This document shows positions 2,672-14,564 of a DNA stretch of 64,000 nucleotides, in pieces. The DNA is from a virus. The stretch lies in the IMG/VR virus record IMGVR_UViG_3300047476_001426, positions 64,001 to 128,000 of that record, one strand, 5' to 3'. Position 1 is the stretch's first letter, and every line of letters starts with the position of its first letter. The position numbers were made by a program, and so were the translations under genes. The notes beneath the pieces were generated by a model. The model was not told the origin of the DNA, did not search any database, and worked only from the letters and a program-made list of their open reading frames with translations.

Positions 2672-4585
2672 TTAAACTTTTACAAATTGTTTAGTTAATT
2701 GTTTATTATAATTATGCAAAACCAAGTAATAATTACCGGCTGCGGATGATGTCATATCGATTTGTTTATATGCAATTTTCTCTGATGAATTGGTTGTAAC
2801 AGAACCGATGTTTTTCACCAATTGACCTCTTACATCATAAATTGAACCGTTCATTTCCATGTTTGGATTTGGGAATCTAATTTCAATTTCAAACCATCCA
2901 CTTGTTGGGTTTGGTCTTATTGATGCTGTAATCTCATCAATTGATTGGTCTGTAGGTGGTGCCATTTTATACATGATAACCGCAACACTACTAACCAAAT
3001 CAATATTTAAATGGTCACCCTTCTCATCTGATGCATCCATTAATTGTCTCACATAAATGTTACTTACAATATCATTACCACCAATTGGTGAGAATTTAAG
3101 TTTAAATGGTGTTGATTGACCTATTAAACCATCTTTCATCTGATTGTTCATCCCACCGAATCTAATTGTACCATTAGAAGCATCGTGAGTAACATATTGT
3201 AACCATGGACCACCATTAAAATTTGATATAATCTCCTCAAACTTAACTTTAGTTTTATCGTATTTCATTTCAAACTGTAAACCATAATTGTTATCACCAT
3301 TTGTGTTAACATTGAATGGTACATATAATGGTTGACTTCCTGATGCTGAAGTATTAGGTATTTCAACATCTAATTTACCTTTAAACACCGCCTTAGCAAC
3401 TAATACCCCCGATGAGTTCCATACTCTTGATGAATACGTTCTGTCTACGTCACCTTGAATAAAGTACTTAATGTTTACTGTTTTATTAACTAAACCAACA
3501 CTATCCGTGATAAAATTGGTTGCGGTTAAATGGTTTGGCCAATCATTCCATTGAGTTGAACCTAAAACTAAAGAATCATAAACACTCGCGTGGAAAGTTC
3601 TAATCATTGTTGTGGTATCTATCTTTTTCATACCACTTACGTTCGCGTAAATTAGATATGGGTCACCACCATCCAATTTTCCGTTTTGGTTCATATCACC
3701 AATAAGGTATGCCAAACCATTTTTTAAGTATTGTTGTCCAAATCCTTGGTTAACGTCTGTAATTGTGTATTCATCATATGTCTTTACAGCGTCTGATATT
3801 GTAACCGCGTAATCTCTGAAGACTTCCATACTATCTGCTGGAAATCTAACCAATAATTTATATTTGGTATTTTTATCTACATTGTTTAATGAGTAGTTAC
3901 CAGCGGTGTCACATAAAGAAGATGAAACAAATGTGCCTGTATTATACTTTGTACATATTACTGTTGGTCTTCTACCGGCCAATTTCATTGTTGGAGGTAA
4001 TTCAACAACACCACTAATCACCAAGTTACCCAAAAGTTCAAGGTGCATATCTTGTACATTTAAGATTGCGATGTTATCACCAATTGTAGAACCGTCATAC
4101 TTAAACATTCTTGCCCAGTTAATTTCAACACTGTCAGCATCAAAGTTTGATTCTACGTCATTAATAATAAATTTGTTATGTATTAAAAATGTGTCTTGTG
4201 TTATTTGAGAACCACTTGAAAGTACCAAGAAATTTCTTGCCACAGTATAGTTGGTATCACTTGTGTATGAATACAAACCTGTACCTGAACTGTAACTTGA
4301 ATATTTGTAATTGTTAAAGAATTTTATCGAAAGTGCTGGAGTCATGGTACTCACAGTTGGGTCAACAGTAGTTGATACGTGAGTAAAAAGTTGTTTCCTA
4401 TATTGGAAATCAACTTGGAATGTTCTCACATCAACCGCGGATGCTGGTGTGTATTTAAACACAACATCTAAAGTATCACCTCTTTTGATAGTTTTATACG
4501 CAACGGGGTTACCTATTTCAGGTGTTTGTGAAAACGCCATTGTCGTGACAAATAAAGTAATTAGGGATAAAATTATTTTTTTCAT
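2672..4585 (-). CDS. Secreted cohesin/dockerin-like protein with T9SS type A C-terminal sorting domain
   Basis: Signal peptide; two cohesin-like beta domains; dockerin-like GDMNQNGKLDGGD; C-terminal IRPNPTSG...IYDVRGQLVK...GNYYLVL...KQFVKV matches the T9SS CTD pattern. Confidence 0.8.
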   Translation of the reverse strand: MKKIILSLITLFVTTMAFSQTPEIGNPVAYKTIKRGDTLDVVFKYTPASAVDVRTFQVDFQYRKQLFTHVSTTVDPTVSTMTPALSIKFFNNYKYSSYSSGTGLYSYTSDTNYTVARNFLVLSSGSQITQDTFLIHNKFIINDVESNFDADSVEINWARMFKYDGSTIGDNIAILNVQDMHLELLGNLVISGVVELPPTMKLAGRRPTVICTKYNTGTFVSSSLCDTAGNYSLNNVDKNTKYKLLVRFPADSMEVFRDYAVTISDAVKTYDEYTITDVNQGFGQQYLKNGLAYLIGDMNQNGKLDGGDPYLIYANVSGMKKIDTTTMIRTFHASVYDSLVLGSTQWNDWPNHLTATNFITDSVGLVNKTVNIKYFIQGDVDRTYSSRVWNSSGVLVAKAVFKGKLDVEIPNTSASGSQPLYVPFNVNTNGDNNYGLQFEMKYDKTKVKFEEIISNFNGGPWLQYVTHDASNGTIRFGGMNNQMKDGLIGQSTPFKLKFSPIGGNDIVSNIYVRQLMDASDEKGDHLNIDLVSSVAVIMYKMAPPTDQSIDEITASIRPNPTSGWFEIEIRFPNPNMEMNGSIYDVRGQLVKNIGSVTTNSSEKIAYKQIDMTSSAAGNYYLVLHNYNKQLTKQFVKV

Positions 4586-5076
4586 AGTATTAATTTGTTA
4601 ATTAAGGTTTGAGTTGTTTTCTTTAATGCCGAACTAGCAGATTGTTGATTGAATTTACCACCCTCATCAATCATAATAGTTGAGGTTGAAATTTCAGTGG
4701 ATTTACCCTCTGAGAATTCCTGTTTAATTTTTTTATCACCTTTATATAGGACACCTTTCATTCTTATAACGGTAGTTGTCTTGTCTTCGTGAAAAATACT
4801 AACCCCCGAGTTAGTGGTTACAATATCAAAAAATATGAGCTCGACTTTAATTTTATAGTCCGCCTTATTTTTATCTGTAATCAGAATTAAACTGTCCTGT
4901 TCGTTTATGATTTCTTCTATTATATTTTTTACACCAAAAGCCAAATTTTTATTTTCGGTAAACGGACCAATCTTAATGTTGTTGATTACTGTGTCAACAA
5001 CAATAGTTTGTGCGTTCAGATTGGAAAACCCAAATGATATTAAAAAAAATAGTAATATGATTGGCAGTCTTGTCAT
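4582..5076 (-). CDS. Hypothetical secreted protein
   Basis: Signal peptide-like N-terminus ending AQ; overlaps downstream gene by 4 nt. Confidence 0.7.
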   Translation of the reverse strand: MTRLPIILLFFLISFGFSNLNAQTIVVDTVINNIKIGPFTENKNLAFGVKNIIEEIINEQDSLILITDKNKADYKIKVELIFFDIVTTNSGVSIFHEDKTTTVIRMKGVLYKGDKKIKQEFSEGKSTEISTSTIMIDEGGKFNQQSASSALKKTTQTLINKLIL

Positions 5077-5079
5077 CAC

Positions 5080-5111
5080 AAAAAAGAAAAAAACGGGGCA
5101 CTGAGCCCCGT
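5080..5111 (-). terminator. Intrinsic terminator
   Basis: acggggc-actga-gccccgt with an A-run on + (U-run on -) just after the 5117 gene. Confidence 0.65.
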
Positions 5112-5116
5112 ATTAA

Positions 5117-5371
5117 TTACTCAGATACTGAATCGTCTGATTTTTTCTTATGTGAGAACTTGTCTAAAGTATCTGCACCCATTCCAATGGCAGTAATTAC
5201 CATTACCGCATTTACCAATTCTTCTGATGGTTTAATGTCACCATGTGTAAAAGAGTTTGCCATCATGGTTCCGCAAAGGAAAAGTGCACCTAATAGTGCG
5301 ATTACCGGTTTGATTGAAGTTGACCCTCTTTCATCTTTGAATAGGTCAATAATCCATTTTTTAAAGTTCAT
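5117..5371 (-). CDS. Small two-TM membrane protein (holin-like topology)
   Basis: 84 aa, two hydrophobic helices, charged C-terminus; function not established. Confidence 0.6.
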   Translation of the reverse strand: MNFKKWIIDLFKDERGSTSIKPVIALLGALFLCGTMMANSFTHGDIKPSEELVNAVMVITAIGMGADTLDKFSHKKKSDDSVSE

Positions 5372-5469
5372 AGTTGTAATTTAGTTTAGTTTTATTATTT
5401 GGTTTATTATAAATACCTCGGCAATCGAGATTGTCATATATATTATTTTAAAAAAAATTTTAACTTTTC

Positions 5470-5500
5470 TTGTTTTTTCGAATACTTATTAGTATCTTTG
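5470..5500 (+). promoter_or_regulatory. Bacteroidota-type sigma70 promoter
   Basis: TTG at 5470-5472 and TATCTTTG at 5493-5500 (TAnnTTTG -7 element). Confidence 0.75.
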
Positions 5501-5530
5501 TAAAAGATTTCAAAAATTAAATAAATTTCG

Positions 5531-5620
5531 ATGATACGTTCAACACATACAATGTCGTTTACAATCTGTTCAAAATGGGCGGAGGTAGCTGATATTTGCA
5601 TGTCCCGAGGTGTCTTCTAA
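5531..5620 (+). CDS. 29-aa leader peptide MIRSTHTMSFTICSKWAEVADICMSRGVF
   Basis: ATG 30 nt after promoter, TAA at 5618-5620; its 3' end (TCCCGAGGT) is complementary to the downstream terminator stem. Confidence 0.55.
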   Translation: MIRSTHTMSFTICSKWAEVADICMSRGVF

Positions 5621-5647
5621 GTTGTTTAATTTTAAAAACGATAAAAG

Positions 5648-5677
5648 AAACCTCGGGAGAAATCTCGAGGTTTTTTT
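5648..5677 (+). terminator. Attenuator terminator before first tRNA
   Basis: aaacctcggga-GAAA-tctcgaggttt then T7. Confidence 0.8.
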
Positions 5678-5684
5678 GTTTTAT

Positions 5685-5756
5685 GGGCCTGATGTCAACG
5701 GCAGACCGTCTGATTTGCAATCAGAACGATTGGGTTCGATTCCCACAGTGTCCACA
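5685..5756 (+). tRNA. tRNA-Ala(TGC), irregular acceptor stem
   Basis: tctga-TT TGC AA-tcaga; G3:U70; T-loop ttcgatt; one bulge in acceptor. Confidence 0.7.
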
Positions 5757-5760
5757 AAGA

Positions 5761-5772
5761 TGTTCTTTGACA
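5761..5772 (+). promoter_or_regulatory. boxA-like antitermination site
   Basis: TGTTCTTTGACA, two changes from E. coli rrn boxA TGCTCTTTAACA. Confidence 0.6.
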
Positions 5773-5786
5773 TATTGGTTTAATTT

Positions 5787-5860
5787 GGTACCGTAGCTCA
5801 GTTGGTAGAGCACCAGACTGAAAATCTGGGTTGTCACTGGTTCAAATCCAGTCGGTACCA
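5787..5860 (+). tRNA. tRNA-Phe(GAA)
   Basis: ggtaccg/cggtacc acceptor; ccaga-CT GAA AA-tctgg. Confidence 0.95.
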
Positions 5861-5962
5861 CATAGTGTTGGCTTCAAGTCCCATTAGGGAAGTACACTTA
5901 AATAAAACATACACGGGGAAAGTGTTGACTGCAGAAACAGCGAGTACCAACGAAGGGGTAAT

Positions 5963-6038
5963 GTCTTCGTAGCTCAGTTGGTTAGAGCACCTCACTTTTA
6001 ATGAGGGAGTCACGCGTTCGAGTCGCGTCGGGGACACA
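5963..6038 (+). tRNA. tRNA-Lys(TTT)
   Basis: cctca-CT TTT AA-tgagg; full cloverleaf. Confidence 0.95.
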
Positions 6039-6040
6039 AA

Positions 6041-6175
6041 GGTTGATTGGGGAATGATTATGTCTATAGTTCGAGAGTGGATACTGACTGACATAATCGG
6101 AGTTTGGAGGTATTCACCGTAGTAATGCCAATCGTAAAAGGAGATGTCCACTGAACCATCTTCTCCTTTCCTTGA
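6041..6175 (+). ncRNA. Structured RNA, unknown
   Basis: gattgg/ccaatc, gattatgtc/gacataatc, aaaggaga/tctccttt helices. Confidence 0.5.
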
Positions 6176-6178
6176 CTT

Positions 6179-6254
6179 AGTTCCTTAGCTCAGTTGGTTA
6201 GAGCATCTGCCTTACATGCAGAGGGTCGTTGGTTCGAATCCGACAGGGACTACA
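6179..6254 (+). tRNA. tRNA-Val(TAC)
   Basis: tctgc-CT TAC AT-gcaga. Confidence 0.95.
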
Positions 6255-6318
6255 ATAAACTAAAAATTGCATCAATAAACAAGGTTAGTTTATCGTGGCA
6301 AAAACAAGTTTAATAAAC

Positions 6319-6392
6319 ACGGGTGTGGTGAAAGGGTATCATACCGGTCTCCAAAACCGTTGTTGGGAGTTCGAATCTCTCCACCCGTGCAA
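6319..6392 (+). tRNA. tRNA-Trp(CCA)
   Basis: acgggtg/cacccgt, G73; cggt-CT CCA AA-accg. Confidence 0.9.
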
Positions 6393-6410
6393 ACTTTAAA
6401 AATAAAAACA

Positions 6411-6842
6411 ATGAACAATCAAATAGGAATCGATGCCGCAAAAATAAAATTTGAGGCTGAGAAAATGAAACTAAAAGAAGAAAGGGAACGAAGGATTAAA
6501 GAGTTTTGGGAAAACGGTATACCCAAATTAAATAATCCTGAAGACGTACCAACACTTCCAAGGGTGGATGAAAAAGAATGGAAAGAATACTATGTACCAA
6601 GATTGATTGATGCTGGTGCAATCCCTAAAAAAGATTTAATCCATGGTCAGATTTATATCGGTGAACATAGAAATACAACCATAGCAAGATGGAATCAGGA
6701 AACAAACAAATTCGACCACATGAGATATAAGTTTGGTTGGGCGAAAGATGATTGTAACCATTTTGAAGATGATGATGGATTCGCATTGTTTGTCCCAATT
6801 AGATTAGGAACACAAGAAGAATGGGATGAAAGAATTAAATAA
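6411..6842 (+). CDS. Hypothetical protein
   Basis: Likely start MNNQIG at 6411; the ORF-track start overlaps tRNA-Trp. Confidence 0.75.
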   Translation: MNNQIGIDAAKIKFEAEKMKLKEERERRIKEFWENGIPKLNNPEDVPTLPRVDEKEWKEYYVPRLIDAGAIPKKDLIHGQIYIGEHRNTTIARWNQETNKFDHMRYKFGWAKDDCNHFEDDDGFALFVPIRLGTQEEWDERIK

Positions 6843-6847
6843 ATGAT

Positions 6848-6923
6848 GCTCTCGTAGTTCAATGGATTAGAACATTTCACTACGGATGAAAGGGTTGGGA
6901 GTTCGAGTCTCTCCGAGAGTACA
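6848..6923 (+). tRNA. tRNA-Arg(ACG)
   Basis: tttca-CT ACG GA-tgaaa. Confidence 0.95.
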
Positions 6924-6927
6924 ATAG

Positions 6928-6999
6928 GGTCAGTTTGGTCATGGAGGCCGGTTAGTCTGCAAAACTAACGGAGTTGGTTCGATTCCAACATTGACCTCA
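6928..6999 (+). tRNA. tRNA-Cys(GCA)
   Basis: ttagt-CT GCA AA-actaa; U73. Confidence 0.9.
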
Positions 7000-7053
7000 A
7001 TATAAGGTCTGAACCTAATAGTGGGGGATTATTAGGTGTGGACCTTATAATAT

Positions 7054-7130
7054 GGTAGATATAGTTCAGTTGGTTAGAACGTCTGATTGTGGTTCAGAAG
7101 GTCGTCGGTTCGAATCCGATTATTTACCCA
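7054..7130 (+). tRNA. tRNA-His(GTG)
   Basis: tctga-TT GTG GT-tcaga; G-1:C73. Confidence 0.95.
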
Positions 7131-7136
7131 AACATT

Positions 7137-7211
7137 GGAATATAGCTCAATTGGTTAGAGCATTCGTCTGATACGCGAAAGGTTATAGGTTCGATTCCTA
7201 TTATTCCAACC
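7137..7211 (+). tRNA. tRNA-Ile(GAT)
   Basis: ttcgt-CT GAT AC-gcgaa. Confidence 0.9.
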
Positions 7212-7217
7212 AAACAT

Positions 7218-7291
7218 TGCGGGGTGGACTGGAGAGGTTCCAGCTCAGTCTCATAAGCTGAATGACGTGGGTTCGATTCCCACCCCCGCAA
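7218..7291 (+). tRNA. tRNA-Met(CAT), initiator-like acceptor
   Basis: tgcgggg/ccccgca; tcagt-CT CAT AA-gctga; lacks the three G:C anticodon-stem pairs of canonical fMet. Confidence 0.8.
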
Positions 7292-7380
7292 CTTTTTCAT
7301 TGAACATTTTGAAATATGGAATTTCATGTTTATATTTTAATTGTTCGTTTGTTCTTTGAAATAAAAATATGGATATAACT

Positions 7381-7455
7381 AGGGTCGAGCCAGATTTTGC
7401 CACGGTTATGTCAAGGGTTGGAAGGACCAGAGCTGGCCGTGACTACTCCAACCCA
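7381..7455 (+). ncRNA. Structured spacer RNA, unknown
   Basis: cacggtt/ggccgtg and gggttgga/tccaaccc helices. Confidence 0.4.
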
Positions 7456-7460
7456 CTATT

Positions 7461-7534
7461 GCCTCCTTAGCTCAGTTGGCCAGAGCGCCTCACTTGTAAT
7501 GAGGATGTCGTTGGTTCGAATCCGACAGGAGGCT
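7461..7534 (+). tRNA. tRNA-Thr(TGT)
   Basis: cctca-CT TGT AA-tgagg. Confidence 0.95.
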
Positions 7535-7540
7535 CTGCAG

Positions 7541-7630
7541 GGTTTTCGGTGTAAAGGGTGTCAAAACCCACCTGAGCAAAACCTAACATATGTCCACTAT
7601 GTGTTAGGGTAATGTGGATAAAACCGAAAT
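7541..7630 (+). ncRNA. Three-way-junction RNA, unknown
   Basis: tttcggt/accgaaa closing stem; gggt/accc and ctaaca..cata/tatg..tgttag arms. Confidence 0.45.
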
Positions 7631-7631
7631 T

Positions 7632-7705
7632 GGTCTCATAGTTAAACGGCTATAATGCAGCCCTGTCACGGCTGAGTTCGGGGTTCGATTCCCCGTGGGA
7701 CCGCA
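7632..7705 (+). tRNA. tRNA-Asp(GTC)
   Basis: cagcc-CT GTC AC-ggctg. Confidence 0.95.
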
Positions 7706-7992
7706 ATGAGTAAGAGATACTCAGGAAGATTGGCTACATTCTGTAAAAAAGTAGTGGTGGTAAAAAAATCCTCGACCTTAATGAGGTATCGATTTGGATA
7801 AAACGGTAGCAAGACTCTGCACCGCCGACGTATAGAGTTGACAGGTTTTTATGTGGTAAGACACTAATGAAAAAGACCCAATGAAGGAGGACGCTTTTAA
7901 GCAATATGTTCAGAGAGCGTTGGGGGATATGGTTCTCGAAACAGTGAGAGAAACCCGTTAAAATCTACTTATTGTAATCTCAGATAAGGAAA
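7706..7992 (+). ncRNA. ~290-nt multi-helix RNA, unknown
   Basis: About nine helices and a possible pseudoknot (see findings); no credible ORF. Confidence 0.6.
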
Positions 7993-7994
7993 TT

Positions 7995-8082
7995 GGAGAG
8001 TTGGCAGAGCTGGTTGAACGCGGCGGTCTTGAAAACCGTTTTACTGAAAGGTAACGGGGGTTCGAATCCCTCACTCTCCGCA
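7995..8082 (+). tRNA. tRNA-Ser(TGA)
   Basis: gcggt-CT TGA AA-accgt; long variable arm; G73. Confidence 0.95.
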
Positions 8083-8088
8083 AATTAT

Positions 8089-8163
8089 GGCCCTTTCGTC
8101 TATCGGTTAGGACAGGTCCCTTTCACGGACCAGAGACGGGTTCGATTCCCGTAGGGGCTACCA
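8089..8163 (+). tRNA. tRNA-Glu(TTC)
   Basis: ggtcc-CT TTC AC-ggacc; encoded CCA. Confidence 0.95.
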
Positions 8164-8179
8164 AACAAAAAAAACCAAT

Positions 8180-8422
8180 ATGTTAGAGAAAATTTTAGAA
8201 CAATATGAGAGTGAGGAAATCTTAATTGCCGATGGATTTGATAATGCGGTTATAGGTATTGATGAATCCACAATGAGATTAATTTATTCCGTTGAGAAGT
8301 GTATAAACATCCTAATGGAACAAGGAATGGATATGACAGAAGCGGTTGAATACTTTGATTTCAACGTCTCAGGTTCATATGTTGGTGAGAAGACTCCAAT
8401 ATGGTGTGATGATTTATTTTAA
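8180..8422 (+). CDS. Hypothetical acidic phage protein
   Basis: 80 aa ORF with ATG/TAA inside the tRNA array. Confidence 0.75.
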   Translation: MLEKILEQYESEEILIADGFDNAVIGIDESTMRLIYSVEKCINILMEQGMDMTEAVEYFDFNVSGSYVGEKTPIWCDDLF

Positions 8423-8440
8423 AAAAAAATTTAAAATTAT

Positions 8441-8470
8441 TTGTAAATAAAAAAACTTTTCGTATCTTTG
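8441..8470 (+). promoter_or_regulatory. Bacteroidota-type sigma70 promoter
   Basis: TTG 8441-8443, TATCTTTG 8463-8470. Confidence 0.75.
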
Positions 8471-8487
8471 TGATAGTTATTTAAGAA

Positions 8488-8592
8488 ATGATGAACTTGG
8501 TATACATACAACAACCGTTGAACAATCCACTTAGTGGTAATGGGAGAGGTATATATTTATGTGACCCAAGTTCGGAGTTAGTCAAATTATAA
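8488..8592 (+). CDS. 34-aa leader peptide MMNLVYIQQPLNNPLSGNGRGIYLCDPSSELVKL
   Basis: Short ORF between promoter and terminator; AAGTTCGG at 8568-8575 is complementary to the terminator 5' strand. Confidence 0.5.
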   Translation: MMNLVYIQQPLNNPLSGNGRGIYLCDPSSELVKL

Positions 8593-8616
8593 GGATAAGA
8601 TAACCTACTATAGATG

Positions 8617-8649
8617 ACCCGAACTTAAATAAAAAAGTTCGGGTTTTTT
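8617..8649 (+). terminator. Intrinsic terminator / attenuator
   Basis: acccgaactt-loop-aagttcgggt then T-run. Confidence 0.8.
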
Positions 8650-8693
8650 GTTTTTAGAGTTTTTTGTTTTTATATTTGAAGTGTTCTTTGACA
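8648..8693 (+). promoter_or_regulatory. Second Bacteroidota-type promoter plus boxA
   Basis: TTG 8648-8650, TATATTTG 8671-8678, TGTTCTTTGACA 8682-8693. Confidence 0.55.
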
Positions 8694-8710
8694 TATTGGT
8701 TTAAGTAGTT

Positions 8711-8797
8711 GCCGAGGTGATGGAATGGTAGACATGAGGGACTTAAAATCCCTTGGACAGTAATGTTCGTGTGGGTTCGACTCCCATCCTCGGTACA
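8711..8797 (+). tRNA. tRNA-Leu(TAA)
   Basis: aggga-CT TAA AA-tccct; long variable arm. Confidence 0.95.
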
Positions 8798-8800
8798 AAA

Positions 8801-8999
8801 GAAACTTCCTTACAGAAGGTGATAATGCTTCACTGAAAGGACTACTGACTTCCAAGTGGGTCGCAACCACAATCGGAAGGTACGACACGGCTCAGTAGAC
8901 TCTGTAACGGACCCTGCTCTATGGTGCACACATAACAGGTGATGGGGAACAAACCATCGGTAAAATCTAAACCCACGGTGAGCGTGGAAGGAATGTTTC
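8801..8999 (+). ncRNA. ~200-nt multibranched RNA, unknown
   Basis: gaaac.ttcctt/aaggaa.gtttc closing stem; ttacaga/tctgtaa, ctactga/tcagtag, cttcc/ggaag, gatgg/ccatc. Confidence 0.65.
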
Positions 9000-9009
9000 T
9001 TTTTTTAAT

Positions 9010-9085
9010 GTCTCCGTAGCTCAGCTGGATAGAGCAACAGCCTTCTAAGCTGTGGGTCATTGGTTCGAATCCAATCGGGGATACT
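9010..9085 (+). tRNA. tRNA-Arg(TCT)
   Basis: acagc-CT TCT AA-gctgt. Confidence 0.95.
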
Positions 9086-9226
9086 AAGATAGTGGTCACT
9101 CTCACAATGAAAGTCGACAAAGTAGTTGTGAGGTTCATAGTGTTCAGCACCCTCGGCCAGTGCACTGATAAAACTCAGAAGAAGCCGTTAAGATTGGAGC
9201 GAGACGGGTACTCCATCACTATCTTT
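9086..9226 (+). ncRNA. ~140-nt multibranched RNA, unknown
   Basis: aagatagtg/cactatctt closing stem; ctcacaa/ttgtgag, gcac/gtgc, ggag/ctcc arms. Confidence 0.6.
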
Positions 9227-9230
9227 TTTT

Positions 9231-9307
9231 CGGGATGTAGCGTAGTCCGGTTATCGCGCATGGTTTGGGACCATGAGGTCGCAGGTTCGAATCCTGCTAT
9301 CCCGACA
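9231..9307 (+). tRNA. tRNA-Pro(TGG)
   Basis: catgg-TT TGG GA-ccatg. Confidence 0.95.
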
Positions 9308-9355
9308 AAGTCCGAGAGTAATTAACTCGGTACCTGAGAGGTTCGAAACTCTCGA

Positions 9356-9450
9356 TTGATTATGGTGTAATGGCGCACAGCAGAACGGAGTACGGGCATC
9401 GGCCTCGAAAGGGGACGCAGGATTAAGGTTCGAATCCTTATTAATCAGCA
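9356..9450 (+). ncRNA. tRNA-like RNA without canonical anticodon arm
   Basis: ttgatta/taatcag acceptor, D-arm gtg..cac, T-arm taagg-ttcgaat-cctta; central region is cctc-gaaa-gggg. Confidence 0.65.
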
Positions 9451-9459
9451 AGCCGTCTT

Positions 9460-9650
9460 TTTTCATACTCGCACCGATGAGGGGGACTGTTGAGACGTTA
9501 AAGTAACAGTGTAAAGCAATCGGGGGTTTATCCAAGTTACCCACAAACTGGGGTCGTTTTCCTTACCGAAGGAGTTTCCCGACCAATAAACTGAAACTCA
9601 AACGATAGAAAAAAGTAGGGACACATGGGGAAGCTTTAACCCGTCCCGAA
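9460..9650 (+). ncRNA. ~190-nt structured RNA, unknown
   Basis: ccgat/atcgg, actgtt/aacagt, gtttat/ataaac, ggtcg/cgacc, tcctt/aagga, gggac/gtccc. Confidence 0.55.
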
Positions 9651-9651
9651 A

Positions 9652-9752
9652 TAGTCAGGTGAGTTGGTACTCACGGAGGGTCGTTAAATGGAAAGATACC
9701 ACATCGACGAGGTGGTAAATGCCGAACAGGTTCGAGTCCTGTCCTGACTACT
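9652..9752 (+). ncRNA. tRNA-like RNA (TAGTCAGG acceptor family, copy 1)
   Basis: tagtcagg/cctgacta 8-bp stem, T-arm acagg-ttcgagt-cctgt, no anticodon loop. Confidence 0.65.
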
Positions 9753-9823
9753 AAGTAGAGAGAACCGTGAGTTTGCGGATGGAAACAACCATAAAACGAG
9801 CATACGTCATACTCTACTTAACA

Positions 9824-9919
9824 TAGTCAGGTTTGGTACAAGGTCGGTTCGAGTCCGATGGAAGGTCATGGATGTCGGGTAGCTCCCTGTAGAGAGGTTC
9901 GATTCCTCTCCTGACTACG
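9824..9919 (+). ncRNA. tRNA-like RNA (TAGTCAGG acceptor family, copy 2)
   Basis: Identical acceptor stem to 9652; two T-loop-like hairpins (tcgg-ttcgagt-ccga, agagg-ttcgatt-cctct). Confidence 0.65.
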
Positions 9920-9995
9920 ATACGGTGTTGACCTGTCCGCGACCGAAATGTATACAAAACAGTGGAGGGTGACAAATAGGGAGAGACCTGTACAT

Positions 9996-10138
9996 GATTA
10001 AGTGGCGAAATTGGTTTACGCGCTGGTCAGTACCCAAAAGAGTGTTGAATGGGGAAAACTGGTGGACATACTACAGACACGAGTAGTAGGAGATTATGTC
10101 TTTAAATCCGTACAGGTTCGAATCCTGTCTTAATCTCG
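9996..10138 (+). ncRNA. tRNA-like RNA with ~70-nt expanded centre
   Basis: gattaag/cttaatc acceptor, Leu-type D-arm, T-arm acagg-ttcgaat-cctgt; insert hairpin gacata.ctac/gtag.tatgtc. Confidence 0.65.
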
Positions 10139-10263
10139 AATGTGGTTCGATTCCACTCGTTAACTGAGGTTTTGGAAAGTAGTCCAATGGAGGTACACAC
10201 TCCACTTAGAAATAAGGTAGAATGATGGAGAACAGTTTGGAGGTGTGGGAAGACACACAAAAT

Positions 10264-10337
10264 TCCTCGATAGCTCAGCGGTAGAGCAAACGGCTGTTAA
10301 CCGTTAGGTCCCAAGTTCGAATCTTGGTCGGGGAGCA
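10264..10337 (+). tRNA. tRNA-Asn(GTT)
   Basis: aacgg-CT GTT AA-ccgtt; G73. Confidence 0.95.
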
Positions 10338-10411
10338 AAAAAATCGTTGATGGAAACATCGAAGGTGTACAATACTAGTAACACCGTAGGTTTGGCGATG
10401 TCCTACAATAG

Positions 10412-10494
10412 GCCTTGGTGGTGGAATGGTAGACACGCTAGTCTTAGGAACTAGTGGCGAAAGTCGTGTCGGTTCGAGTCCGACCTGAGGTACA
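10412..10494 (+). tRNA. tRNA-Leu(TAG)
   Basis: ctagt-CT TAG GA-actag. Confidence 0.95.
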
Positions 10495-10497
10495 AAT

Positions 10498-10603
10498 TCA
10501 TTCTTAGTGTTATGAGGTAAAACACTTTGACTCTCACATCGCCTGGTTAGTACTGACCCGAATGTGAGACGAGTAAGTTGGTTCGAATCCAACAGAATGG
10601 ACA
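10498..10603 (+). ncRNA. tRNA-like RNA with elongated anticodon arm
   Basis: tcattct/agaatgg, D-arm gtgt/acac, ctcacat/atgtgag stem enclosing 22 nt, T-arm gttgg-ttcgaat-ccaac. Confidence 0.65.
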
Positions 10604-10664
10604 ACCCGTCGAAAGCTCATGTTGGTCCGAGTGAGATGGAAACGCGGATATCGGACCCGTTATT

Positions 10665-10747
10665 GGAAGGTGGGTGAGTGGTTAAAACCGGCAGACTGTA
10701 AATCTGCTCCCATTGGGTACGGGGGTTCGAATCCCTCCCTTCCAACA
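10665..10747 (+). tRNA. tRNA-Tyr(GTA)
   Basis: gcaga-CT GTA AA-tctgc. Confidence 0.95.
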
Positions 10748-10758
10748 AAAATATCATT

Positions 10759-11310
10759 ATGAAAAAAAATAAAATAATTTCAGAGATGTTATCAAACATC
10801 ACACCTGAAATGAAAGAAAAATGGAAACAAGAGAGAATTGAACGTAAAAACAAATTAACACCCGAATATCAACTCGGATATTATGTTGGTTTGGAAATTG
10901 TTCACAGATATCTACCAACTCTTTCTACTGATATGATACAATCTCGCACCGTGATTGAAGTTTCTGAAGAAGATACTTTAGAAAATGAAAGATTGGATAC
11001 CGAATGGTATACAACAACAAAACACGGTGGAGAATGGAATGGTGTTGATGAAAACGGCAATAAAGAGAAATGGGATTTATACCATCAACACAATAAAATG
11101 TTGGGAAGGAAATACCTACCAAATCCATTGGAGTGTTACATGAGTTTGTTAAATGTTCAAAACATGGATGAATTTAAAAAAGGTTTAAGGTTCGCATTGT
11201 GGGATTGTGATATGTGTTCATACAATATTGAACCTGAAAACATAAAAATTTACGATGATGAACAAGCCATGTTTACTATTATCGAATTTCAATTAGATTC
11301 AGTGGTGTAG
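10759..11310 (+). CDS. Hypothetical protein
   Basis: 183 aa; TAG stop lies inside the 5' end of tRNA-Ile(TAT). Confidence 0.75.
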   Translation: MKKNKIISEMLSNITPEMKEKWKQERIERKNKLTPEYQLGYYVGLEIVHRYLPTLSTDMIQSRTVIEVSEEDTLENERLDTEWYTTTKHGGEWNGVDENGNKEKWDLYHQHNKMLGRKYLPNPLECYMSLLNVQNMDEFKKGLRFALWDCDMCSYNIEPENIKIYDDEQAMFTIIEFQLDSVV

Positions 11311-11377
11311 CTCAATTGGTGAGAGCAGGACTCTTATACAGTCAAGGTTATGGGTTCAAATCCCGTCATCACTACCA
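11301..11377 (+). tRNA. tRNA-Ile(TAT)
   Basis: agtggtg/catcact, A73, encoded CCA; gact-CT TAT AC-agtc. Confidence 0.85.
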
Positions 11378-11428
11378 ATTATCGGTTAAATAACCGATAA
11401 AATAAATTATCGTCGATTTGAACGATAT

Positions 11429-11504
11429 GGTCCCTTAGCTCAGTTGGTTAGAGCAACTGACTCATAATCAGTAGGCCCACGGTTCAAGCCCGTGAGGGAC
11501 CACA
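11429..11504 (+). tRNA. tRNA(CAT), probably Ile2 (lysidine) rather than elongator Met
   Basis: actga-CT CAT AA-tcagt; ggtccct acceptor resembles Ile2 tRNAs. Confidence 0.8.
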
Positions 11505-11527
11505 GAGATATTTATATATAAAAAACT

Positions 11528-11980
11528 ATGGGAATAGAATTAAAAAAGAAAAAACAACTTATCGAAAGATTAAATAAAAGGTTGTTATCGGAAGCCGAAA
11601 TGGAATGTCCAAAACCAACTCAAGATTTGGAATTAAACACCAAAAACAGAGATAAATCAATAAAGGCAGATTATATTAAATATGGTCCACTTAATATTGA
11701 TGAACCGGGAGATTATTGGGAAATGGTTGCATCCGATTGGGATACAACTGTTGAGGCAGCAAAAAAATCACTATGTGGTAATTGTGTTGCTTTTGATATT
11801 TCACCAAGAATGGATGAATGTATGCCGGGTTCTGTTTCTGATGACAGCGGTAGATTAGGTTACTGTTGGATGCATCATTTTAAATGTCATTCAGCAAGAA
11901 CATGTAAAACATGGGCTAAAGGTGGACCTATTACCGAAGACACGGTTTCATACGAATGGCAAGAAAAAAATAAAGAATAA
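11528..11980 (+). CDS. Cys-rich hypothetical protein with late-gene N-terminal motif
   Basis: CGNC...CM...YCWMHHFKCHSARTC; N-terminus RLNKRLLSEA; TATTTATA at 11509. Confidence 0.8.
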   Translation: MGIELKKKKQLIERLNKRLLSEAEMECPKPTQDLELNTKNRDKSIKADYIKYGPLNIDEPGDYWEMVASDWDTTVEAAKKSLCGNCVAFDISPRMDECMPGSVSDDSGRLGYCWMHHFKCHSARTCKTWAKGGPITEDTVSYEWQEKNKE

Positions 11981-12043
11981 ATGTAGTCGTACCCTTAACT
12001 CCAAAACTCACAACTGAGTCTCTGTTATGGGAAGGCTACTCCC

Positions 12044-12116
12044 GCGGAAATAGCTCAGTTGGTAGAGCATCACCTTGCCAAGGTGAGGGTCGCGAGTTCG
12101 AGTCTCGTTTTCTGCT
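12044..12116 (+). tRNA. tRNA-Gly(GCC)
   Basis: tcacc-TT GCC AA-ggtga; U73. Confidence 0.95.
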
Positions 12117-12185
12117 CTAAGTAAACCTTAAAAAGGGCCCTTCCGTTGGTACGACAACGGCTTGTTGAGCCCGGGTTTACTTTTT

Positions 12186-12259
12186 GCGAATATCGTATAA
12201 TGGTCATTACTTCAGACTTCCAATCTGAAGATGTCAGTTCGATTCTGACTATTCGCTCA
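12186..12259 (+). tRNA. tRNA-Gly(TCC)
   Basis: tcaga-CT TCC AA-tctga; U73. Confidence 0.95.
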
Positions 12260-12310
12260 ATCATTATAGTGGTCACTAAATCGGGTTAGTGAAAATCTAT
12301 TTGATATTAT

Positions 12311-12383
12311 TGTCCTGTGGTGTAACGGCAGCACATCTGGTTTTGGTCCAGAGAATTGAGGTTCGAATCCTTGCGGGACAACA
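12311..12383 (+). tRNA. tRNA-Gln(TTG)
   Basis: tgtcctg/cgggaca; tctgg-TT TTG GT-ccaga. Confidence 0.95.
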
Positions 12384-12439
12384 AAATTTTTAAATTATGA
12401 AAAAAGAAAGAGACTTCTATTAGGTAACACTAATAGAAT

Positions 12440-12709
12440 ATGTCAAAACACAGAAACAGAGCTAAGCTCAAAAACGCAGAATGTGGTAGGGATTACCACC
12501 TAATTTCTTTAAACGAATGGTATCCCCTTTATTGGGATGAGGGGTACAACTTCTATCCACGATGGAGAAGAGGTTACAAAAATCCCAACAAGACAATTCC
12601 AATCTTTAAAGTACGTGAGTACAGAACTTGGAAGTACAACAGAAAAAACCAATATGTTGAGAGGAAAGTTACCCAAGTTGGTGAAGGGGACGGTTTGCTA
12701 AACCGTTAG
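12440..12709 (+). CDS. Small basic hypothetical protein
   Basis: Arg/Lys/Trp/Tyr-rich; last 47 nt overlap tRNA-Ser(GCT); ends in TAG. Confidence 0.6.
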   Translation: MSKHRNRAKLKNAECGRDYHLISLNEWYPLYWDEGYNFYPRWRRGYKNPNKTIPIFKVREYRTWKYNRKNQYVERKVTQVGEGDGLLNR

Positions 12710-12752
12710 GTCGAGTAATCGGCGCGAGGGTTCGAGCCCCTCACTTTCCGCA
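12663..12752 (+). tRNA. tRNA-Ser(GCT)
   Basis: acggt-TT GCT AA-accgt; long variable arm; G73. Confidence 0.95.
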
Positions 12753-12781
12753 AAATACTTATAAGTAGAATAATATGTAAT

Positions 12782-13243
12782 ATGACAAAATTTAGAACAT
12801 TGTACGGAACACCCATAACTGACGTTATTGGTTACATCAAAGATTATTTGGTTGATAAAACTGATGTTGAGATATTAATTGGTTCGGATTCACAATCATT
12901 TAGTAATTCAAAAACAGTTTACGGGGTGGTTATTGCTCTTTACACAACAGGTAAAGGTGCACACGTACTATGTACTAAAGATATCACACCATTTGAAAAA
13001 GACACATCAAGTAGATTAATGACCGAAGTTTGGAAAGCTGTTGAAGTTGCCGAACATTTGAGAAATAATGGTTTACCAAAAGCCACATGGATTGATATAG
13101 ATTTAAATCCCGACCCAAGATATAAATCAAACAAAGTTTTGAGACAAGCAGTTGGTTTGGTTGAAGGTATGGGATACAAGGTAAGATACAAACACGCAGG
13201 TGCTATGGTGACTTACAGTGCAAACCATTTGGTAAGAATTTAA
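12782..13243 (+). CDS. RNase H-like YkuK (DUF458) family protein
   Basis: ILIGSDSQ...LMTEVWKAVEVA...IDIDLN...ANHLVR acidic RNase H-like pattern. Confidence 0.75.
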   Translation: MTKFRTLYGTPITDVIGYIKDYLVDKTDVEILIGSDSQSFSNSKTVYGVVIALYTTGKGAHVLCTKDITPFEKDTSSRLMTEVWKAVEVAEHLRNNGLPKATWIDIDLNPDPRYKSNKVLRQAVGLVEGMGYKVRYKHAGAMVTYSANHLVRI

Positions 13244-13260
13244 AAAAAAGATAAGAGGGC

Positions 13261-13307
13261 TTGTTTTTTTAAAAAAGTCCTTTTATCTTTGTAATGTAAT
13301 ATTTATA
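13261..13307 (+). promoter_or_regulatory. Bacteroidota-type promoter plus TATTTATA motif
   Basis: TTG 13261, TATCTTTG 13284-13291, TATTTATA 13300-13307. Confidence 0.7.
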
Positions 13308-13310
13308 GTC

Positions 13311-13652
13311 ATGAGAAAAAACTAGATTAACAGACTTGTAGTCGTAACCCGTAAAGACTTAAAACCCGGGTACCAAATTGCACAATCGGGACATGCAATC
13401 TCTCAGTTCATTTTAGAACACCCCGAATTGTCGAAACGATGGAACAACAGTTATCTGATTTCATTATCCATCGATTCAGAAGAAAAATTACAACAATTAC
13501 TTTTTAGGTTAGAAGATTCAGGAATACCTGTATCTCATTTCATTGAACCCGATATCGGGAATCAATTAACATCTATTTGCTTTCTCGAAACCGAGGAAAC
13601 AAAAAGATTCACATCATCATTGCCTTTATCCTTAAAGGAATATAATAAATAA
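13311..13652 (+). CDS. Pth2-family peptidyl-tRNA hydrolase with in-frame amber codon at codon 5
   Basis: ATG AGA AAA AAC TAG ATT AAC AGA CTT GTA GTC GTA ACC CGT AAA GAC TTA...; RLVVVTRKDLKPGYQIAQSGHA and FIEPDIGNQLTSI are Pth2-type motifs and the first lies upstream of the ORF-track start. Confidence 0.8.
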
Positions 13653-13672
13653 ACAATTTAATCTTAAAAATT

Positions 13673-13927
13673 ATGAAGTAGATTAACAAAAAATGTGAAA
13701 TTATTTTTCACTTCAACAAGAAACACTTGGAAAATCCGACGATTCCAATGTGGGTTGTGAAATGTCGGGGCGACACTTATTATGTTCATCATGTTGATGT
13801 CTCACCGGGTGTGGGATTCTCAACAAAAGAAACTCCCGATAACCCTCATACCAAAGGGAGTATAAAATTCAAAGCAAATTTGGAAATTGAGGAAAACAAT
13901 AACATAATAACAGCTAAAATTTTTTAA
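13673..13927 (+). CDS. Hypothetical protein with in-frame amber codon at codon 3
   Basis: ATG AAG TAG ATT AAC AAA AAA TGT GAA ATT ATT TTT CAC TTC AAC..., in frame with the 13727 ORF. Confidence 0.75.
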
Positions 13928-13929
13928 AA

Positions 13930-14268
13930 ATGAAAAATACAAAACACAACCCAACAATGATGATTAAATCATCTTTCTCGAACAAGATTCATAATCTTTT
14001 AGGTATCAAACACAAACCATATTCAAAAGAGTGGTTTGAAGGTATGAAACAAAGAAGAGAATTGACTAATGAAGAAAAGTCTAAACTTTTTGATGAAATT
14101 ATGAAGGTGTATGTTGAAACATCCGACGAATTGGTAAACTATCGTAAAGATAGGAGATTAAAAAAATGGGTCAACAAAAAACGTTTAGAAAGAGGATATG
14201 TCCCAAAGAAAAAAACAAAAAAAGAAGATTATGAAAAAAATCTTCAAAATGATTTGGAGATATCTTAA
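13930..14268 (+). CDS. Basic hypothetical protein
   Basis: 112 aa ORF starting 2 nt after the previous stop. Confidence 0.7.
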   Translation: MKNTKHNPTMMIKSSFSNKIHNLLGIKHKPYSKEWFEGMKQRRELTNEEKSKLFDEIMKVYVETSDELVNYRKDRRLKKWVNKKRLERGYVPKKKTKKEDYEKNLQNDLEIS

Positions 14269-14286
14269 TTAATATCTACTTTTGAA

Positions 14287-14383
14287 TTGTGATTGAAAAG
14301 TGACAGTGACAAATAGACCAAGTGGGGCACACGTAAAATTGTATCAGTCGAAAGTCGAGGTGATAGACCACCATCAATCACAA
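14287..14383 (+). ncRNA. Structured RNA abutting the suppressor tRNA
   Basis: ttgtgattga/tcaatcacaa 10-bp closing stem; ggtg/cacc arm. Confidence 0.55.
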
Positions 14384-14385
14384 AC

Positions 14386-14459
14386 GGTCTCGTGGTGTAG
14401 CGGTAACATTACGGTCTCTAAAACCGATAGTCACGGGTTCAAATCCCGTCGGGACCACA
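14386..14459 (+). tRNA. Amber suppressor tRNA (CTA), Gln-like body
   Basis: ggtctcg/cgggacc, A73; cggt-CT CTA AA-accg (anticodon 14418-14420); T-arm acggg-ttcaaat-cccgt. Confidence 0.9.
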
Positions 14460-14497
14460 ACAAAAAAAAATATTTTTAAAAAAAATTACAAAAATAC

Positions 14498-14527
14498 TTG
14501 TTTTTTAAAAAAAGTTTTGTATCTTTG
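14498..14527 (+). promoter_or_regulatory. Bacteroidota-type promoter
   Basis: TTG 14498-14500, TATCTTTG 14520-14527. Confidence 0.75.
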
Positions 14528-14564
14528 TACCACAACAATAAATAATACATTTAATACGACATTT

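Follow-up and report, generated by a model that had tools for sequence, protein, structure and literature searches.

A probable ribosome-mediated attenuator ahead of phage tRNA genes, with a leader ORF whose codons sample the tRNAs that follow

In a 64,000-nucleotide (nt) stretch of phage DNA (hereafter the window; bases 64001-128000 of the 136-kb IMG/VR virus record IMGVR_UViG_3300047476_001426, which is rated 41% complete), a short cassette made of a promoter, a leader open reading frame (ORF) and an intrinsic terminator stands directly ahead of a block of tRNA genes. This cassette (module 1, positions 5493-5677 of the window, + strand) is quite probably a ribosome-mediated transcription attenuator of the trp/his/ilv type that governs the tRNA block and senses a shortage of the phage's own tRNA species, and production of these tRNAs is probably confined to times when the ribosomes lack them. 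A cassette of the same build (module 2, 8463-8649) stands ahead of a second tRNA sub-array.

Module 1 opens with the octamer TATCTTTG (5493-5500, + strand), a promoter -7 box of the Bacteroidota type TAnnTTTG that is kept at a fixed distance in relatives and recurs identically at the head of module 2. A scan for sigma-70 promoters was uninformative (37 matches vs 29 expected), the relevant type being TAnnTTTG. The box is followed by leader ORF 1 (5531-5620, +; 29 codons from the ATG at 5531 to the stop TAA at 5618-5620) and by an intrinsic terminator (5650-5677, +), which consists of a 5' arm ACCTCGGGA (segment 2, 5650-5658), a GAAA loop (5659-5662), a 3' arm TCTCGAGGT (segment 3, 5663-5671, with one G.U pair) and a run of seven T (5671-5677). 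An initial annotation, made from the letters of the window, had named the promoter, the 29-codon ORF and the GAAA-capped terminator just before a tRNA-Ala gene, all of which are present, and had singled out a stretch near the end of the ORF as an exact complement of the terminator 5' arm. This antiterminator strand TCCCGAGGT (segment 1, 5603-5611, +; codons 25-27 of ORF 1) is indeed perfectly complementary to 5650-5658, and the match is beyond chance: the duplex between the 3' part of ORF 1 and the terminator 5' arm reached -18.9 kcal/mol vs -8.4 kcal/mol for shuffles (z -4.7, 0/500 shuffles). Folding placed two further hairpins on the same strand, an imperfect one inside the ORF (5545-5603, core 5567-5585 nearly invariant), which on the folds is a possible RNA polymerase pause hairpin, and a small spacer hairpin (5621-5642), which stacks within the extended antiterminator in constrained folds and is kept in the close clade.

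Such cassettes are few in this record. The module 1 terminator was the strongest + strand hairpin of the region in a terminator scan, and within 5000-15000 only two strong + strand terminators were found, each behind a leader ORF. Across the 136-kb record there were only three promoter/small-ORF/terminator cassettes, two of which are modules 1 and 2; the third, with a 34-codon ORF, lies outside the window at G000:C1:20313-20518. Further cassettes were sought before the later tRNAs and the suppressor tRNA, and none was found.

Module 2 begins with its copy of TATCTTTG at 8463-8470 (+), followed by leader ORF 2 of 34 codons (8488-8592, +). Its segment 1 (8566-8575, +) is a near copy of the 3' arm of terminator 2 and complementary to 8619-8626 (duplex -15.6 kcal/mol, z -3.2), and the start region of ORF 2 (8493-8500) is in turn complementary to 8566-8575. 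Terminator 2 (8616-8649, +), identified by the same scan and by folds, has arms at 8616-8626 and 8635-8645 and a run of six T at 8644-8649.

The codons of each leader sample the tRNAs of the sub-array behind it. The initial annotation, noting that the leader 1 peptide holds no run of a single amino acid, had suggested that it may sense general translation stress; instead, its codons spell out the set of 14 tRNAs encoded behind terminator 1, and module 2 does likewise for its own set. The leader 1 peptide uses 15 amino acids, 14 of which match the 14 tRNAs between terminators 1 and 2, and codons 3-21 of ORF 1 (5537-5593) sample 14/14 tRNAs of sub-array 1 and hardly any others, while codons 2-20 of ORF 2 sample 12/12 tRNAs of sub-array 2. 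These roster codons are the positions at which a waiting ribosome would leave segment 1 free; the codons lying under the RNA switch are mixed. Counted over the whole ORFs, codons specific to array 1 and array 2 numbered 24 and 2 in ORF 1, and 7 and 25 in ORF 2; for the first 24 codons the counts were 20 and 1 in ORF 1, and 1 and 21 in ORF 2 (Fisher p 4.6e-10). The division extends to codon boxes within one amino acid: Arg is read as CGU/CGA in ORF 1 (tRNA ACG) and as AGA in ORF 2 (tRNA UCU), Ser as UCN in ORF 1 and AGU in ORF 2, and Ile as AUC/AUU in ORF 1 and AUA in ORF 2, the exception being an AUA at codon 2 of ORF 1, which is the sole array 2 codon among its first 24. Random ORFs drawn with the codon usage of the phage sampled all 14 tRNAs in 9/30,000 trials and all 12 in 303/30,000, and among 361 small six-frame ORFs of the record the score of ORF 1 was reached by ORF 1 alone.

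The same two-module layout was found in four near-complete genomes of 290-325 kb (G001-G004). In two of them (G003 and G004) tRNA-Thr and tRNA-Val belong to array 2, and their leader 2 includes both Thr codons (two) and Val codons (one or two); leader 2 of the window type lacks Thr codons. A search with the DNA pattern of terminator 2 yielded 62 loci, including phages with quite different leaders. In one such leader (L212:5115-5210(-), 31 residues) the part before the switch contains, besides Met, precisely those 12 amino acids that correspond to the first 12 tRNAs behind it. Another (L207:4400-4480), with Tyr and Glu codons (four each) and three Ala codons, stands before four tRNAs for Glu, two for Tyr, two for Gly and one for Ala, and a second leader of the same contig (L207:12738-12851), with six Asn, five Thr and four Leu codons, precedes three tRNAs for Leu, one for Arg, two for Asn, one for Thr and one for Cys. 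At L200:1714-1791(-), 11/11 tRNAs were sampled up to the contig end. Over 26 complete distinct modules, a cognate leader codon was present for 293/294 tRNAs found in the own array and for 201/408 absent ones, so completeness is the rule and exclusivity only partial. The share of codons 2-24 that belongs to the own array ranged from 0.45 to 1.00 vs a mean of 0.40-0.51 for other arrays. Leader types with a Cys-x-x-Trp motif may be distant homologues of leader 1, and of the types at L207:4400-4480 and L212:5115-5210(-) one is unrelated and the other possibly such a homologue.

The initial annotation had proposed covariation in related phages as a check, and the ORF, the antiterminator and the terminator turned out to be conserved over about 25 distinct related phage contigs, the two pairings with compensatory changes. 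For this comparison 80 related loci were anchored by an 84-aa gene on the other strand (5117-5371), and more leaders were added by means of a leader-core pattern and a peptide search, giving 27 distinct leader sequences; the 18-nt core pattern also produced ~8 chance matches in unrelated long ORFs, which were set aside. A single column-wise structure for 26 leaders was unworkable, as the divergent clade pairs in a shifted register and is placed elsewhere by MAFFT, and covariation was consequently measured on a 15-sequence sub-alignment, the remaining comparisons being made by per-sequence duplexes. In the sub-alignment the antiterminator helix (columns 28-36/90-98) was 94.8% paired with two compensatory pairs (C-G to U-A), a level reached by 0/500 shuffles and by no slid register, and the terminator helix was 99.3% paired, again with two compensatory pairs. 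Duplexes of the window clade reached -15 to -20 kcal/mol (z -4.2 to -5.7) at ORF nt 69-75; those of the divergent clade were only 7-8 base pairs (bp) long and in a shifted register (z about -1 to -3), still at ORF nt 69-75. Nearly all other leader families likewise have a stretch inside the ORF that is complementary to the terminator arm.

The reading frame was conserved along with the RNA. Over the 27 distinct leaders the start was kept (one GTG), the stop was TAA or TGA, and the frame persisted through 3-nt and 6-nt insertions. Changes in codons 6-17 of leader 1 were almost all synonymous, variable sites numbering 5, 9 and 13 by codon position. The first 17 residues of the peptide are conserved, with an invariant His6 and Cys13-Ala17; the last third is free to vary, and its RNA still pairs with the terminator 5' arm. 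One locus (L185:2501-2700 = L119) represents a natural knock-out: a deletion of ~27 nt removes segment 1 and shifts the frame, and the terminator, with a tRNA directly behind it, has kept its 5' arm and lost its T run and one pair, which is the decay expected if a terminator without its antiterminator is harmful.

Folding supported a switch that depends on the position of the ribosome. The leader as a whole folded at -55.5 kcal/mol (z -6.2). With upstream RNA occupied, as represented by 5600-5671 alone, the antiterminator (-24.4 kcal/mol) was preferred to the terminator (-18.8 kcal/mol); in the whole ribosome-free leader the terminator conformer was favoured (-48.1 vs -45.5 kcal/mol for the antiterminator conformer), because 5513-5541 pairs with 5607-5633. 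The proposal to fold both conformers, also part of the initial annotation, thus had a divided outcome: the antiterminator wins once upstream RNA is occupied, and termination is the predicted default when there is no ribosome. The stretch 5513-5541 (+), comprising 5' untranslated region, start codon and codons 2-4, is tentatively assigned as an anti-antiterminator strand from the pair list of the minimum free energy fold. Such a fourth-segment pairing was predicted for both window modules and was significant in only some relatives; it was therefore rejected as a universal feature. When the ribosome was modelled as a 28-nt mask at successive P sites, with nascent RNA up to 5662, segment 2 paired with segment 1 for every P site up to codon 20, and segment 1 was masked for P sites from codon 22 onwards. 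A ribosome waiting at the stop codon, with this codon in the A site, would cover 5603-5630, including segment 1. This agrees with the mechanism put forward in the initial annotation, in which a ribosome at the stop masks the antiterminator and a slow or stalled one opens the array.

The proposed mechanism would run as follows. With all sampled tRNAs plentiful, the ribosome would trail the polymerase to the stop codon and cover 5603-5630; with segment 1 masked, the terminator would form and transcription would stop at ~5677. If one sampled tRNA were scarce, the ribosome would wait at its codon (at or before codon 21) with its front edge upstream of segment 1, which would be free to pair with segment 2 as soon as this was made, so that no terminator could form and the polymerase would enter the tRNA genes. 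The outcome would be a negative feedback that holds each phage tRNA set at need, and the sets would also be turned on upon depletion or cleavage of host tRNAs. In the absence of any ribosome, the 5' leader may sequester segment 1 and lead to termination by default. Each leader would then be a many-input OR gate with one codon per tRNA species, in which the depletion or cleavage of any one of them (a host anticodon nuclease could be the cause, or the change to phage codon usage) turns on the whole replacement set. This reading, together with its extension to a general principle of tRNA-rich phages in unrelated lineages, evolving with tRNA gains and losses, has a slightly better than even chance of being right.

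The first gene behind terminator 1 (5685-5756, +) is, from its score and consensus cloverleaf, a real but odd tRNA-Ala(UGC). It scored 31.8 bits with Rfam RF00005 (gathering score 29) and was not called by ARAGORN. The cloverleaf derived from 10 homologues has a UGC anticodon, the G3.U70 alanine mark and 22 consensus pairs, nine of them compensatory; it is unusual in having a D stem of just 3 bp, a T stem of 4 bp and a base that bulges from the 3' strand of the acceptor. Some relatives carry a canonical tRNA-Ala at the equivalent spot. Between the T run and tRNA-Ala lie 7 bases, and in nearly all relatives the first tRNA starts at +6 to +8, apart from inserts of 50-80 nt in two related contigs (L199 and L217). 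As this leaves no room for a promoter, tRNA-Ala can be made only by read-through.

The claim of the initial annotation that no promoter lies between terminator and tRNA thus stands for tRNA-Ala, where there is no room for one, and is less certain for the next gene, since a motif ahead of tRNA-Phe could be a promoter. This motif, TTCTTTGACATATTGG (5763-5778, +), lies 8 nt before tRNA-Phe, and a second exact copy (8684-8699) lies 11 nt before tRNA-Leu; these are the only two exact copies in the record, one between tRNA-Ala and tRNA-Phe and the other ahead of tRNA-Leu, and each precedes the first canonical tRNA behind its terminator. The motif behind the terminators (TTCTTTGACAT) is conserved in distant phages too. 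It could be fitted to neither promoter type: outside the tRNA, no -10 element lies 16-18 nt from its TTGACA, and there is no TAnnTTTG 19-21 nt from its TTTG; a processing site, a special promoter and a protein site are the candidates for its role. In addition, a TAnnTTTG box, TATATTTG (8671-8678, +), lies between terminator 2 and the motif copy at 8684, and is a possible second promoter; it occupies the same place in five genomes and is absent in several distant phages. For module 1 to control the genes from tRNA-Phe onwards, the motif at 5763-5778 must have no promoter activity of its own. If the motif or the box did start transcription, the effect of the attenuators would come on top of a basal level, or module 1 would govern tRNA-Ala only.

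Several points weigh against attenuation of the tRNA blocks. From the motif or the TAnnTTTG box, all tRNAs but tRNA-Ala could be transcribed independently of the attenuators. In the folding model, the full-length leader at equilibrium favours the terminator by 5.5 kcal/mol, so that antitermination must be kinetic. Transcription and translation are not known to be tightly coupled in Bacteroidota. The divergent clade has a complement of just 7-8 bp (z about -1 to -2.5), and in the 32-codon ORFs of that clade the modelled stop-codon ribosome sits just past segment 1. The roster, complete as it is, is non-exclusive, about half of the absent tRNAs having a leader codon, and leader 1 of G003 and G004 retains its Thr codons despite the presence of tRNA-Thr in array 2 (own-array share 0.67). 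Common ancestry inflates the statistics taken over relatives, and the independent leader families are estimated at about four to six. Upstream of its homologue of the 84-aa gene, one close relative (L016) has two tRNAs directly behind a promoter, without a leader, in place of module 1 and sub-array 1; in a close relative (L010) module 1 and all of sub-array 1 are missing, lost as one block. From these two arrangements the cassette is a unit, though not an obligatory one. Finally, the phage is uncultured, and the attenuation is a prediction from its sequence.

The small ORFs might instead be ordinary genes for small proteins, with the tRNA arrays transcribed from separate downstream promoters (the motif at 5763 and 8684, or the box at 8671) and the in-ORF complement having no regulatory role. 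The strong conservation of the N-terminal 17 residues of leader 1 would suit a protein, as would the presence of the conserved motif and the TAnnTTTG box past the terminators. Nevertheless, this is unlikely: the motif fits neither Bacteroidota nor sigma-70 promoter spacing, tRNA-Ala begins 6-8 nt past the T run in nearly all relatives with no promoter space, and the C-terminal third of the peptide varies while its RNA still pairs with the terminator arm. Nor would small-protein genes be expected to sample their own arrays down to the level of the codon box in unrelated leader families.

A somewhat less probable alternative is nascent-peptide arrest of the TnaC/SecM type, in which the N-terminal leader peptide would stall the ribosome in response to a small molecule or factor and the stalled ribosome would decide between terminator and antiterminator, with the codon match being secondary. 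Here the geometry is permissive, since the conserved core Ile-Cys-Ser-Lys-Trp-Ala would lie in the exit tunnel with the P site at ~codon 20, when segment 1 is still free. However, leader 2 and the unrelated families lack the leader 1 motif and yet keep roster and switch, and the conservation of the core is equally explained by codons having to stay readable by the roster tRNAs. No Pfam or relevant NCBIfam leader-peptide model matched at E values up to 10, and a loose likeness of the leader 1 core to the Trp-containing core of TnaC was set aside for want of model support in either collection. That the region is a non-coding structured phage small RNA of ~170 nt ending at the terminator, with an incidental reading frame, is very improbable. 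The leader does fold far better than shuffles (z -6.2) and the core of its in-ORF hairpin is nearly invariant, but neither indels of 3 and 6 nt nor swaps of the stop codon have disrupted the frame, the start or the stop, the changes in codons 6-17 are mostly synonymous, the codons form a roster, and an Rfam scan of the leader region returned no family at threshold. Ribosome-mediated attenuation that senses tRNA shortage was retained as the preferred reading.

What would be new in this element is its target and its sensing logic; the attenuation mechanism is classical. Multivalent attenuators are known from enterobacteria, where the ilvGMEDA leader carries Ile, Val and Leu codons and the thr leader Thr and Ile codons. 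Like these, the phage cassette has a promoter-proximal ORF with codons for several amino acids, hairpins chosen by the ribosome and a terminator ahead of the regulated genes, and slow decoding would lead to read-through. Unlike these, its targets are tRNA genes and not biosynthetic enzymes, so the quantity fed back would be the tRNA supply itself; its leaders sample 12-14 tRNA species one to four times each, where ilv and thr have runs of one to three amino acids; and the phage elements stand in tandem, one per sub-array. The four-segment logic, a stop codon placed to block the antiterminator and the predicted default termination without translation are shared with trpL, hisL, leuL and pheL, which differ in having a run of a single regulatory codon, and the fourth segment of the phage leaders is not kept in all relatives. 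The Rfam leader models stayed below their gathering scores (His_leader RF00514 25 bits vs 49, Phe_leader RF01859 17.7 bits vs 55).

A further comparison is the pheST operon attenuator of E. coli, which senses one amino acid or tRNA and regulates phenylalanyl-tRNA synthetase. What it shares with the phage cassette is leader-peptide attenuation of a part of the translation machinery that deals with the tRNA being sensed, whereas the phage would regulate the tRNA genes themselves and sense many species. T-box riboswitches bind tRNA directly, need no translation and regulate synthetase and amino-acid genes. They share with the phage cassette a choice between terminator and antiterminator that is set by the status of specific tRNAs, the reader in the phage being the ribosome; the T-box covariance model had no match within 5000-15000. 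A literature search found no paper on attenuation of tRNA genes or on codon-matched leaders in phages.

ARAGORN called 26 tRNAs in the record, all on the + strand and all within 5787-14458. Sub-array 1 (5787-8163, +; ARAGORN and Rfam) comprises tRNAs for Phe, Lys, Val, Trp, Arg(ACG), Cys, His, Ile(GAU), Met, Thr, Asp, Ser(UGA) and Glu together with a 143-160-aa ORF, and sub-array 2 (8711-12751, +; ARAGORN and Rfam) comprises tRNAs for Leu(UAA), Arg(UCU), Pro, Asn, Leu(UAG), Tyr, Ile(UAU), Met, Gly(GCC), Gly(UCC), Gln and Ser(GCU) with other RNAs and ORFs. Small ORFs are interleaved among the tRNAs at 6411-6842, 8180-8422, 10759-11310 and 11528-11980. Between tRNA-Leu and tRNA-Arg of sub-array 2, a match to the Rfam freshwater-1 RNA (RF02979) was found at 8903-8965 (72.5 bits, gathering score 72). 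An ORF-poor stretch of ~950 nt (9306-10264) holds seven T-arm-like hairpins (GGTTCGAnTCC), as well as a 141-nt tRNA-like gene (9996-10136; Rfam tRNA 36.1 bits) that is ~70 nt longer than a standard tRNA owing to an insertion after the D arm. The size of this insertion makes its anticodon unreadable, and the tRNA-like stretch possibly consists of intron-bearing or degenerate tRNAs. The gene at 12782-13243, which comes right after the final tRNA of sub-array 2, codes for an RNase H-like protein of 153 aa (PF04308, 60.6 bits). A tRNA with the anticodon CUA (an amber suppressor, labelled Pyl by ARAGORN) lies at 14386-14458, and TAG is the stop in just 4/102 long ORFs of the record; from these two observations, TAG may be recoded in part of the genome.

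The record has a G+C content of 33%. Relatives of the window phage measure 288-324 kb at 92-97% completeness, which points to a jumbo phage. Upstream of module 1, a 637-aa protein on the - strand (2672-4585) carries a Por_Secre_tail, the C-terminal sorting domain of type IX secretion (31.5 bits), which is a host-range clue for Bacteroidota and an unusual phage cargo. Together with the TAnnTTTG-type promoters of the region, this domain indicates a Bacteroidota host. No cultured relative was identified: blastn of 5100-6100 against cultured phages gave generic tRNA matches only, and tblastn with the 706-aa neighbour protein against the cultured phage collection gave nothing above 31% identity.

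Next to nothing is known of how phages control their own tRNA genes, and tRNA genes in general are usually regarded as being under the control of promoter strength and growth rate, with no part played by attenuation. If the reading holds, these would be the first tRNA genes seen to be regulated through the speed at which their own codons are decoded, and it would explain the splitting of tRNA arrays into blocks. The rule that a leader has a codon for every tRNA of its array is simple enough for automatic annotation in metagenomic phages, and a roster attenuator would be reusable as a synthetic sensor of tRNA supply. The leader codons would also provide a testable read-out of the tRNA species that the phage treats as limiting, and the roster thereby bears on the debate whether phage tRNAs serve codon usage or defence against the cleavage of host tRNAs.

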